Shown in pieces: positions 4,748-13,287 of a DNA stretch of 64,000 bases. Source of the DNA: Candidatus Aminicenantales bacterium. GTDB lineage: Bacteria; Acidobacteriota; Aminicenantia; Aminicenantales; Saccharicenantaceae. The first letter of the stretch is position 1; every line of letters begins with the position of its first letter. The translations under genes and the position numbers were made by a program. The stretch covers positions 1 through 64,000 of the forward strand of contig JBEKXF010000022.1 of the NCBI GenBank assembly GCA_049512315.1, read 5' to 3'. The notes under the pieces were generated by a model, which did not search any database, was not told the DNA's origin, and saw only the letters and a program-made list of their open reading frames with translations.

Positions 4748-9036
<4,289 letters not shown>

Positions 9037-9037
<1 letters not shown>

Positions 9038-12000
9038 TGGATATCAGGCCGCCGATGGGTCCAAGACCGAAGCCCGATTTCGACCGGGTCAGGATCAGCA
9101 TCGCCTCCCCCGAAAAGATTAAGAGCTGGTCCTGGGGCGAGGTGACCAAGCCCGAGACCATCAACTACAGGACCTTCAAGCCCGAGAAGGACGGCCTTTT
9201 CTGCGCCAAGATCTTCGGCCCCATCAATGACTTCGAATGCCTCTGCGGCAAGTACAAGAGGATGAAATACCGGGGCATCATCTGCGAGAGGTGCGGCGTC
9301 GAAGTGACCAAGTCCAAGGTCCGCCGCGAGCGGATGGGCCACATCCTGCTGGCCTCGCCCGTCGCCCACATCTGGTTCTTCAAGAGCCCCCCGAGCCGGA
9401 TCGGGCTGGTTCTGGACCTGTCGATCAAGGACCTGGAGAAGGTCCTCTATTTCGAGTCCTACATCGTCATCGATCCCGCCGATACCCCGCTCAAGGAAAA
9501 ACAGCTCCTGAACGAGGAGGAGTTCAAGGACGCCCAGGAAAAATACGGCGACAAGTTCGAGGCCTCGATCGGCGCCGAGGCCATCAAGGTCCTCCTCGAG
9601 AAGATCAACATCCAGAAGGAGGCCGAGCGGCTGAGGAAGCTGATGAAGAAGGAGACCTCCCAACAGCGGAGGCTCCGTTACGCCAAACGCCTGCGGGTCT
9701 TCAAGGCCCTCAAGCGGTCGGGCAATCGCCCGGAGTGGATGGTTCTGGACGTCATCCCGGTCATCCCGCCCGACCTCAGGCCTCTCGTCCGGCTGGACGG
9801 CGGCCGTTTCGCCACCTCCGACCTCAATGACCTCTACCGGAGGGTCATCAACCGCAATAACCGGCTAAAGAAGCTCATCGAACTCAAAGCCCCCGAGCTC
9901 ATCATCCGCAACGAGAAGCGGATGCTCCAGGAAGCCGTGGACGCCCTATTTGACAACGGGAAGCGCGGCCGGGTCCACCTCGGAGCCAACCGGCGGCCCC
10001 TCAAGTCCCTGAGCGAGGCCCTCCGCGGCAAGCAGGGGAGGTTCCGCCAGAACCTGCTTGGCAAGCGGGTGGACTACTCGGGCCGGTCCGTCATCGTCGT
10101 CGGTCCCGAGCTCAAGCTGAACCAGTGCGGGCTTCCCAAGAAGATGGCCCTCGAGCTATTCAAGCCTTTTATTTTCAACAGGTTGGAAAAGGAGGGGCTC
10201 GTCCCGAGCGTTAAAGTCGCCCGCGAGTGGCACGAACAGGAGCGGCCCGAAGTTTGGGACTACCTGGAGGAGGTCGTCCGGGAGCATCCCATCCTCCTCA
10301 ACCGCGCGCCCACCCTCCACCGGCTGGGCATCCAGGCCTTCGAGCCCCTCCTCGTCGAGGGCAAGGCCATCCAGATCCATCCCCTGGTCTGTGCCGCTTT
10401 TAACGCCGACTTCGACGGGGACCAGATGGCCGTCCATATCCCGCTTTCCGTGGAGGCCCAGATCGAGGCCCAGACCCTGATGCTCTCGACGAACAATATC
10501 TTGTCTCCCGCCCACGGCCGGCCCCTGACCATCCCGAGCCAGGACATGGTCCTGGGCTGCTATTACCTGACCCTGGAAAAGAGGGGCCAGAAAGGGGAGG
10601 GCCGCATCTTCGGCCGGCCCGAGGAAGTCCTGCTGGCCCTGGAAAACAAGGAGATCTCGCTCCAGAGCGCCGTCAAGCTGCGCTTCACGGGGCCTTTCAT
10701 GAACCTGGCCACCTACTACGACGACCAGGCCGTCATGACCTGCCCCGTCCAGGAGATCGCCGCGGAACTCATCGAAACGACCCCGGGCCGGATCATCTTC
10801 AACGGCGTCCTCCCCAAGGGCGTCCCTTATGTCAACGGCATGGTCCGGAAGAAGGGCCTCGAGAACCTCGTCTTTTACACTTACCTGAAGGTTGGCCTGG
10901 GGCCGACGGTCGAGATGCTCGACGCCCTGAAGGAGCTCGGCTTCACCTACGCGACCCGGGCCGGCTTTTCCCTGGGCATCGATGATTTCGTCATCCCGAA
11001 GGAGAAGAGCCACCTCGTGGACAAGGCCCAGAGAGAAGTCCAGGAGATCGAGAACCTCTACCGGGACGGCACGATCTCCTCGGGCGAGCGCTTCAATCGG
11101 GTCATCGAGATCTGGGGAACGGTCACCGACAAGGTCTCAAACGCCATGATGGAGGAGATGCGCAAGATCAGCCTCGAAGGCAAGGAGCTCAACCCCCTGT
11201 TCGTTATGGCCGAATCCGGCTCGCGCGGCAACAAGCAGCAGATCCGGCAGCTGGCCGGCATGCGCGGCCTCATGTCCAAGCCCTCGGGCGAGATCCTGGA
11301 GACGCCCATCACCGCGAACCTCCGGGAGGGCTTGGACGTTCTGCAGTACTTCATTTCGACGCACGGCGCCCGGAAGGGCCTGGCCGACACCGCCCTCAAG
11401 ACGGCCAACTCCGGCTACCTGACCCGGAAGCTCGTGGATGTTTGCCAGGAAGTCATCGTCGACGAGCACGACTGCGGCACCCTCAAGGGCATCAACGTTT
11501 CGGCCATCGTCGAGAACGGCGAAATCATCGAGCCGTTCATCGACCGGATCGTGGGCCGCGTCGCTCTCGAGAGGGTCGTCAACCCGGACAATGGCGAACC
11601 CATCGTCGACATGAACGAGGAGATCACCGAGCAGGTCGCCCACGAGTTTCAGAACCTGGGTATCGAGCGGGTCAAGATCCGCTCCCTCCTCACCTGCGAG
11701 TCCAAGCGCGGCATCTGCCAGCTCTGCTACGGGCGGAGCCCGGCCAGCGGCCGCATGGTCGAACTCGGCGAGGCGGCCGGGATCGTGGCTGCCCAGTCCA
11801 TCGGCGAGCCGGGCACCCAGCTCACCATGAGGACCTTCCACGTCGGCGGCATCGCCATGGGCGGGGCCGAGAAGTCCAAGCTCGAGGCCAAGAACGAGGG
11901 CGTTGTCCGTTTCAACAACCTCAAGGCCGTCGAGAACAAGGACGGGACCCTCATCGTCGTCAACCGCAACGCCAACATCGCCATCCTGGATCACCGGAGG

Positions 12001-13287
12001 CGCGAGGTCGAGCACTACCAGGTCCCCTACGGCGCCAAGGTCCTCGTCAAGGACGGGGCGGAGATCAAGGCCCGCCAGGGGTTCGCCGAATGGGACCCCT
12101 TCAACACGTTCATCCTGACCGAGGAAACGGGCGATGCTCGGTTCCACGAGGTCGATCGCGGCGAAAGCATGGAAGAGGTCCAGGACGAGTTCACGGGACT
12201 GATCACGCAGGTTATCATCGAGCCCAAGAACGAGAAGCTTCAGCCTCAGATCGAGGTCCTCGACCCGATAATGGTTAAGATTCATGACCCGGGAGAGACG
12301 CGATATAAGAAACACGAAGTGGTCGAAAAGACTTCGGTTGACGCAGAAAACGAAAAGGCTAGAAAGAAGGGCAGTAAAGAAGCGAATTATGAGCGCGTCG
12401 TCCTCCGGAAATACTTCCTGCCCTCGGGCGCGAACCTCGAGATCAAGGACGCGGACCGGGTCTTTGCCGGCGAGGTCCTGGCCAAGATCCCGCGCGAGGC
12501 GGCCCGCACCAAGGACATCACGGGCGGCCTGCCGCGGGCCGAGGAGCTGTTCGAGGCCCGCCGGCCCAAGAACCCCGCGGTCATCTCCGAGATCGACGGG
12601 ACGATCCAGATCGAGGGGCTGGTCAGGGGATATCGGAAGATCATGGTCCGCAACGAGCGCGGCGGCGAGAAGGAATACCTCGTCCCCAAAGGCGCCCACC
12701 TGAGCGTCTCCGACGGGGAAAGGATCCGGGCCGGTGACGCCCTGATGGACGGCCCGGTCAACCCCCATGATATCCTCCGCGTCCTGGGGGAGAAGGAGCT
12801 GGCCGAATACCTCCTCAAGGAGATCCAGGCCGTCTACCGGCTCCAGGGTGTTCCCATCAACGACAAGCACATCGAGACGATCATCCGGATGATGCTGCGC
12901 TGGGTCAAGGTCGAGGAGGTCGGGGACACCGAGTTCCTGGTGGACGAACAGGTGGACAAGTTCATCTTCCAGGAGGAGAACGAGAAGGTCATGAAAAAGG
13001 GCGGCAAGCCGGCCAAAGCCCGGCCCCTGCTCCTGGGGATCACCAAGAGCGCCCTGAGCACGGACAGCTTCATCGCCGCGGCCTCCTTCCAGGAGACGAC
13101 GCGGGTCCTGACCGAAGCCAGTCTCTATGGGAAAGTGGATTATCTGAGGAGATTGAAGGAGAACATCATCATGGGCCGGCTGATCCCGGCCGGGACGGGG
13201 TACAAGTTCTACCGGAACGTAGAGCTCAAGGAAGAAATGCAGCCCGTCCTCCCTGAGAAGGAAAAGGAGGTCGTGCCGGAGACCTGA
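9037..13287 (+). CDS. rpoC: RNA polymerase beta' subunit
   Basis: NADFDGDQM catalytic motif, N-terminal Zn finger, [23 protein letters not shown]. Confidence 0.99.

Follow-up and report, generated by a model that had tools for sequence, protein, structure and literature searches.

An optional sLC-type domain in the trigger-loop insertion of RNA polymerase beta' of Candidatus Aminicenantales, probably inserted once and moved as a presence/absence allele by homologous recombination

The rpoC gene in the 64,000-nucleotide stretch of Candidatus Aminicenantales DNA analysed here (the window; positions 1 to 64,000 of contig JBEKXF010000022.1) carries, within the part that encodes the trigger-loop insertion SI3, an in-frame, A/T-rich segment for a small folded domain which near-identical rpoC alleles lack. 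We consider it probable that a single insertion, with a possible second one for the G010/L113 type, placed an sLC mini-domain on the tip of a surface hairpin within the second SBHM of SI3 in Candidatus Aminicenantales; that the hairpin would thereby have been lengthened into a stalk of two strands topped by a small head of strand and helix; that the resulting presence/absence allele would then have been gained and lost by ordinary homologous recombination via the conserved rpoC flanks, without mobile-element machinery; and that the lineage of the window would have acquired it very recently, on a tract of about 350 bp from a GC-rich congeneric clade. The insert itself is best read as an older, folded surface domain under purifying selection.

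The gene lies in an operon of the rpoB-rpoC-rpsL-rpsG-fusA type (rpsL, rpsG and fusA were named from sequence), the close homologs of its product are labelled Candidatus Aminicenantales or Aminicenantes, and the reading frame stays open across the insert. In insert-free contigs from runs X2, X4 and X5, 29 letters are found between the joints at 12264 and 12396, so that the net gain amounts to 102 nt or 34 amino acids, with a 44-residue domain replacing a 12-residue hairpin tip. The features referred to below are the following, in positions of the window:

4748 to 9037, forward strand: rpoB, used as backbone and codon-usage control
6731 to 6862, forward strand: homologous module within RpoB, a control with mostly host-like GC3
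9037 to 13287, forward strand: rpoC, RNA polymerase beta', 1416 aa with the insert (near-identical alleles without it encode 1382 aa)
11854 to 12516, forward strand: SI3, the trigger-loop insertion with two SBHM domains that hosts the module, delimited by an AlphaFold2 model and its match to 2auk_A
12081 to 12430, forward strand: recombination tract common to the G006/P0001 clade, comprising upstream flank, insert and a short downstream flank (right edge approximate, 12423-12439)
12265 to 12395, forward strand: sLC or beta'-bD7-like insert, 131 nt in place of the 29-nt ancestral hairpin tip, GC3 0.51
12904 to 13029, forward strand: native beta'-bD7 (sLC) module of RpoC, homolog of the insert, with host-like codon use

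The name BBM2, which the sequence-only reading had given to the insert, reportedly goes back to Iyer (2004) and to Lane and Darst (2010). The alignments on which that reading drew were reproduced by BLASTP: without gaps, 16/42 residues are identical to the native RpoC segment at 12904-13029 (64/126 at the nucleotide level), and 10/28 are identical to the RpoB module at 6731. In HHalign comparisons the insert profile matched the native beta'-bD7 of the family with a probability of 97.9 over 43 columns and the RpoB module with one of 94.9, as against 0.10 for the beta-i4 region of E. coli; an insert HMM gave negative scores, i.e. no similarity, against E. coli beta 225-343, which holds the beta-i4 tandem repeats. 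The PDB sequence matches of the insert (12/12) all fell in the beta'-bD7 segment of beta', and a profile built from 12 inserts matched E. coli beta' 1264-1302. The native RpoC segment has been named beta'-bD7, an sLC domain (Alvarez-Carreno et al. 2024, PMC11515920), and beta-i4 has been described as two BBM2 motifs (Opalka 2010, PMC2939025). Because its profile matches beta'-bD7 and not beta-i4, the insert is, as judged by sequence, an sLC module and not a BBM2 in the sense in which Opalka (2010) uses that name for beta-i4, and the earlier label was dropped.

Related modules were also encountered in other settings. A second sLC is nested in beta'-bD7, a known insertion site, in the RpoC of other lineages (P0013-P0016, P0026, P0029, P0033, P0038, P0046, P0049 and P0088), and the SecE proteins P0020, P0072 and P0054 of Gemmataceae, which are planctomycetes, have two to three sLC-like RNAP modules between membrane segments. 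A closely conserved sLC-like module, often C-terminal, is further present on the otherwise unrelated bodies of unnamed non-RNAP proteins (one with DUF192, one with a weak LPD25 match), namely P0018, P0022, P0024, P0027, P0028, P0034, P0039, P0044, P0056, P0057, P0061, P0063, P0069, P0074, P0080 and P0081. These unnamed proteins may belong to mobile elements; a search of viral contigs for one of them, P0018, did not find it. The N-terminus of the window's RpoB (4990-5180, residues about 83-142) contains a Cys-rich, double zinc-ribbon-like insertion with weak Pfam zinc-ribbon matches.

As had been proposed from the letters, the insert lies between the RTFH and DITGGLP motifs, within SI3. Its site is the hairpin equivalent to E. 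coli beta' ~1083-1097 in the second SBHM, which by order probably corresponds to the subdomain named SBHMb in PMC6970531. An AlphaFold2 model of SI3 with the insert, based on 48 sequences, reached a mean pLDDT of 93 (95-98 in the insert) and predicts that the insert prolongs the hairpin as a long strand, a short strand, a helix and a return strand. Without the insert, the model superposes on E. coli SI3 (2auk_A) with a Z of 20.0 and an rmsd of 2.1 over 174 aligned residues; as modelled, the SI3 fold is left intact and the host is an ordinary two-SBHM SI3. This model replaced an earlier one from 9 sequences, poor outside the insert (mean pLDDT 44.7), which after trimming matched only beta' chains, and those weakly (6edt_D, Z 4.0, rmsd 3.4, 58 aligned), the module being folded within its host. 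In insert-free loci of other families (L019, L020, L021 and L030) the hairpin tip has 16-17 residues instead of 12, and the site therefore tolerates indels. The claim that the insert bears no intein or transposase signature held: Pfam yielded no match at E values up to 1 for 12238-12429, and around the insert neither a transposase nor a flanking-repeat signature was seen, the repeats and palindromes there being short, chance-level pairs of which none was convincing. An intein or homing element was rejected, as the insert has 44 aa, lacks a splicing or endonuclease domain and is homologous to an RNAP domain.

Alignment of relatives at the junction, a check proposed with the sequence-only reading, revealed a patchy presence, with the insert in 6/339 genomes of the class, interleaved with insert-free sisters. 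A first sample of 30 loci had contained a loop of 46-47 residues in 3 and a short loop in 27. Within the family, 6 of the 78 genomes with a match, from three genera, carry the insert, and a sample of 400 other genomes of the phylum held zero carriers. Protein searches located further carriers in 8 of the 120 best-listed clusters, where 16/111 proteins could not be parsed automatically and, on inspection by eye, showed short loops. Carriers and non-carriers occur together in three 90% clusters: that of P0119, the nearest locus of which is G027 of a second family (90%), comprises 5 carriers, two insert-free proteins at distances of 10 and 20 aa when the site is disregarded, and two fragments that lack it; P0003 has 3 carriers and 2 insert-free members; and P0004 has 7 and 3. 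Carriers make up all of P0001 (8/8 of the members with the site) and P0002 (10/10). In an RpoC tree (FastTree) computed without residues 996-1140, which omits sequences under 45% coverage, the carriers are polyphyletic and interleaved among insert-free sisters. Fixation in a clade followed by vertical inheritance was ruled out by this polyphyly, the mixed clusters and the recombinant tract described below. The loop is occupied by at least six divergent module types (the window type, G046, P0005, P0006/P0115, G010/L113 and P0119), including in the second family, with identities of 32-66% among the six (29-59% for five of them in a direct comparison) and a loop length of 46 in five types and 47 in one. 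As a domain inserted in frame into a surface loop, with outgroups devoid of it, the module has the attributes of a lineage-specific RNAP insertion.

The immediate source of the window's copy is a GC-rich congeneric clade, from which it came by homologous recombination on a tract of about 350 bp. The closest genomes of the window, G002 and G003 (RpoB about 96.5%), have no insert, and the window groups with them in the RpoC tree without aa 996-1140. Within 12000-12500, identity to the carrier G006 is 0.94-0.97 (mostly 0.81-0.94 elsewhere) and identity to the sister G002 is 0.84-0.89 (about 0.94 elsewhere). G006-like and G002-like informative sites number 25:2 inside the tract and about 132:844 outside (P about 4e-19), a count which leaves out 11 misaligned loop columns and for which the Fisher table used 133 outside sites. 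The same tract is supported by per-segment nearest neighbours, and its limits are marked by the edges of an assembly bubble in run X2; the co-converted upstream tract suspected at 12120-12270 was found in this way to run from 12081 to ~12430. Third-position differences between the window and G006 amount to 1/36 in the insert versus 0.25 in the backbone, and the core of the window's module is 98% identical to that of P0001. As G006, L109, P0001 and P0002 form a clade with the insert in every sampled member, and the window is nested among insert-free sisters, the transfer was from the congener into the window's lineage. Thus, the view that a small module is moving at present was supported by the patchy distribution and the recent transfer, but that of a recent capture from a lower-GC donor was not, since the rpoC of the immediate donor clade has a GC3 of about 0.89 and already contains the A/T-rich module. 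The g6 carriers and P0119 have native flanks and lack the foreign tract, so that the demonstration of recombination applies to the lineage of the window; between genera and families it would be the likely route. At 10100-10300 of rpoC, identity to G002/G003 dips to 0.87-0.88 and GC3 is lower (0.74-0.82), possibly reflecting a second, older recombination tract.

Contigs from other studies demonstrate that the transfer into the window's lineage was recent. A 451-bp contig from run X4 spans 12003-12453 with 0 differences, including both junctions and host-type sites on each side, and zero-difference pieces are present in two more studies. An insert-free contig from run X5 has 30 differences in 11800-12264, none of the 23 listed ones lying before 12081, and a further 8 in 12396-13068. 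In run X2, a peat run holding the insert and insert-free alleles together, two branches, at depths of 21.8 and 8.7, emerge from common flanks that show 0 differences and have depths of 30.8 and 31.9; the branch depths sum to the flank depth of about 31. Outside the tract, the insert-free proteins P0176-P0178 are 9-10 aa away from the window's RpoC (G002: 35 aa). The insert hence differs between alleles that are about 99% identical, and the insert-free alleles probably still occur in the species of the window or in one almost identical to it; since the evidence from X2 and X5 consists of contigs and not of raw reads, conspecificity is likely and not proven, and two very close species are conceivable.

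The unusual composition of the insert was confirmed. A recount gave 52/120 G+C for 12271-12390 and an A/T third letter in 22/41 codons from 12268, against a GC3 of 0.88 for rpoC overall. Corrected for amino-acid composition with host codon use, 22 A/T-ending codons were seen among 43 where 5.5 were expected (z=7.7, exact P=4e-10), and the excess persisted with Lys and Glu, the richness in which might have caused it, removed (15 versus 2.5 expected). In a scan of rpoB and rpoC the maximum among 2670 other 44-codon windows was z 4.07. Codon use is ordinary in the native downstream RpoC module (z -1.1) and in the RpoB module (z -1.3). The latter was found in 15/15 parsed relative loci (of 19; four were unparsed), where its GC3 mostly tracks the flank, with the largest gap in G010 (0.74 vs 0.94). 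Six window-type insert copies have GC3 values of 0.51, 0.56, 0.59, 0.60, 0.56 and 0.64 in hosts of 0.88-0.96, the G046 copy 0.38 in a host of 0.94, and the more GC-rich G010 and L113 copies 0.77 and 0.85. Intergenic G+C within the operon is 0.42-0.54.

This composition had been taken as unameliorated and hence as an argument against duplication. Polarised synonymous changes in the insert run from A/T to G/C at 4/20 sites and from G/C to A/T at 9/32 (apparent equilibrium 0.42), as compared with 12/21 up and 190/1570 down in the backbone (0.83; insert vs backbone P about 0.001). The polarisation was by parsimony, which is biased, the counts are small and two of the 13 calls are doubtful; amelioration is for these reasons disfavoured, no more. 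A two-state likelihood model mildly preferred an equilibrium of 0.15-0.41 over 0.88 (2 delta lnL 6.7 or 3.6, depending on the tree), with a root GC3 above equilibrium, and since this preference is only mild, slow amelioration from a root near 0.3 is still compatible with the data. As the module is not visibly ameliorating, its low GC3 neither dates the insert nor rules out an old ectopic copy of the native module. The A/T-richness would accordingly seem to belong to the module permanently, with an apparent equilibrium of about 0.4-0.5, and not to be the fingerprint of a donor. GC-biased gene conversion has been weighed against selection in bacteria (PMC4450053), and escape from such conversion would explain the composition, since an insert that is optional will mostly find no partner sequence in recombination; however, the insert is apparently fixed in the G006/P0001 clade, yet its GC3 there is 0.56-0.59. 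Selection for slow codons at a domain boundary might be another option. A more far-reaching version, which we regard as doubtful, is that the SI3 domain is a presence/absence polymorphism, old and maintained by selection in different genera and families, that escapes GC-biased conversion and has drifted to an A/T-rich mutational equilibrium amid codons with a GC3 of 0.9. If true, it would provide a within-gene natural experiment on gene conversion versus translational selection in bacteria, and a case of RNAP domain gain at the population level.

With regard to the ultimate origin, one allele family is favoured by the constant length and register of the insert and by how little G046 and the window type differ at synonymous positions (4/16 third positions, despite an amino-acid difference of 61%). 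In a module tree, the inserts are not recovered as one clade: the non-G010 group (support 0.65) includes three foreign modules, and the G010 type stands apart. The tree is too weak to establish a single origin, which would apply most readily to the types other than G010. Searches with the insert alone, which were to identify the donor, found no ultimate donor in the databases covered. In its own genome, tblastn and blastn returned the insert, the native module and the RpoB module, plus weak matches at E of 1 or more; the insert profile recovered from the 339 class genomes the 6 carriers and native beta'-bD7 (judged by position and match length), but no donor, and none was found in the phylum sample of 400 genomes, in annotated phages or in the protein collection and 1.84 billion protein representatives. 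The 77 matches among the latter were native or nested RpoC modules, SecE, small unnamed proteins and repeat artefacts. In viral contigs, neither the insert alignment nor a degenerate pattern nor a small unnamed module protein used as query found a match; PHROGs had none for the insert, and the ESM Atlas gave no usable one for one unnamed module. Blank searches of this kind do not equal absence of a donor. Outside the inserts, no module matched any of the types at more than 55% identity. Since the sLC-like module is promiscuous, being found also within beta'-bD7 of other RpoC proteins, in several copies in the SecE of Gemmataceae and on small unnamed proteins, a foreign ultimate source is plausible, and a low-GC one is conceivable.

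An old ectopic duplication of the lineage's own beta'-bD7, followed by divergence and decay toward A/T, would be compatible with our main proposal and differ from it only in the origin of the module. We hold it to be a serious if rather less probable option: within the class, native beta'-bD7 modules of the family itself give the best matches apart from the inserts, native modules are also the nearest non-insert ones to the P0006/P0115 type (44-49%), and the root GC3 above equilibrium points the same way. However, only 64/126 nt and 16/42 aa are identical to the native copy, other module types are nearer to foreign modules, and, as the native copy is nearly constant across the family, a duplicated insert would have had to diverge very fast at first.

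The fold appears to be maintained, since most pairs of the window's module type have a dN/dS of about 0.08-0.3, which indicates purifying selection; the value of 0.6 for the recent window/G006 pair is based on 2 synonymous changes. Positive selection was not indicated, the within-type dN/dS being below 1, and an obligatory co-adaptation of the upstream flank was rejected, as the module lies between unmodified flanks in P0096, G044, G077 and P0004. In E. coli, pausing is modulated by SI3 through its jaw and rim-helix contacts (PMC11077087), and the SBHMb of SI3 contacts the plasmid factor TraR (PMC6970531). By analogy, and at roughly even chances, the insert might be predicted to act as a tolerated folded appendage with small effects on pausing and on the contacts of SI3 with the jaw and with secondary-channel factors. 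A speculative and, in our view, unlikely alternative is that the module, variable as it is, protects SI3 as a shield or decoy from RNAP-binding proteins that phages or plasmids encode, both alleles being kept across species by balancing, frequency-dependent selection. The persistence of both alleles in several lineages and two families, the high amino-acid divergence between types at modest synonymous distance and the TraR contact would fit; on the other hand, within-type dN/dS is below 1, no antagonist has been identified, and near-neutral drift with recombination also yields patchiness.

Repeated independent captures at this hairpin as a hotspot, with local spread after each and with an unsampled low-GC reservoir as the source (the rpoC or rpoB modules of other bacteria, or mobile elements), would extend the capture idea of the sequence-only reading and are distinctly unlikely. 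This account would accommodate the strong divergence of the six types, the GC3 of 0.38 of the G046 copy in its 0.94 host, the clean junctions in g6 and the second family, and the homologous modules outside RNAP in planctomycete SecE and small unnamed proteins. It is opposed by the equal register and length in five types and the synonymous codons common to G046 and the window type, by the limit of 55% identity to non-insert matches with no donor in the genomes, proteins, viral contigs and phages searched, and by the absence of net amelioration. Finally, an assembly chimera or artefact has a negligible probability: although one metagenome assembly yielded both a contig identical to the window (L108) and one of the G006 type (L112), the tract of the window differs from that of G006 at more than 10 sites, the X4 contig crosses both junctions, which settles at contig level the concern raised earlier, zero-difference pieces exist in two more studies, and full-length insert-bearing RpoC with the same architecture was found in many other assemblies.

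Inteins, homing elements and intragenic palindromic repeats are likewise in frame, patchy and associated with co-transferred flanks; in contrast, the insert is a folded RNAP domain of 44 aa with no endonuclease or splicing domain and no convincing repeat. RNAP insertions serve as deep phylogenetic markers. The nearest relatives of the present case are the sLC domains beta'-bD7 and beta'-bD2 and the lineage-specific sLC insertions of PMC11515920, which involve the same module as a small insertional domain nested in another RNAP insertional domain. The portions of that study available to us list sLC/BEAN/HABAS variants in bD2, bD4, bD5 and bD7 of deep-branching lineages, small unassigned inserts being omitted; sLC insertions into RNAP are thus already known, but at other positions and in deep lineages, whereas here an sLC lies inside SI3, varies among near-identical strains and is moved by recombination. 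The BBM2 repeats of beta-i4 and beta-i5 (PMC2939025; C. difficile RNAP preprint 10.1101/2022.01.17.476619) similarly represent a small module recurring at several RNAP sites, but a different one, as the insert has no detectable similarity to the beta-i4 region. The host domain is a two-SBHM SI3 like the SI3 or beta'i6 treated in PMC11077087 and PMC6970531; while the variation described there, as far as those texts were accessible, concerns the number of SBHMs between phyla, here an optional non-SBHM module varies, probably within species. In the literature covered, to which supplements and most subscription papers did not belong, we found no account of an sLC in SI3 and none of an RNAP domain segregating within a species or among near-identical strains.

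The domain described here runs, as a segregating part of SI3, against the published view, put forward in section 3.1 of PMC11515920, that RNAP domain insertion tapered off or ceased after early bacterial evolution. Homologous recombination of an optional domain provides a concrete mechanism for scattered or convergent RNAP inserts, and related modules are found at the same SI3 site in three genera and a second family. The case also cautions against taking the A/T-richness of part of a core gene as proof of recently acquired foreign DNA, and the insert may offer a handle on the question of gene conversion versus selection (PMC4450053). Natural allele pairs are available for testing the effect of an added domain on SI3-dependent pausing. 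With an optional 44-residue domain on a mobile part of an essential enzyme, the RNA polymerase of these uncultured peat and sediment bacteria still gains and loses domains.
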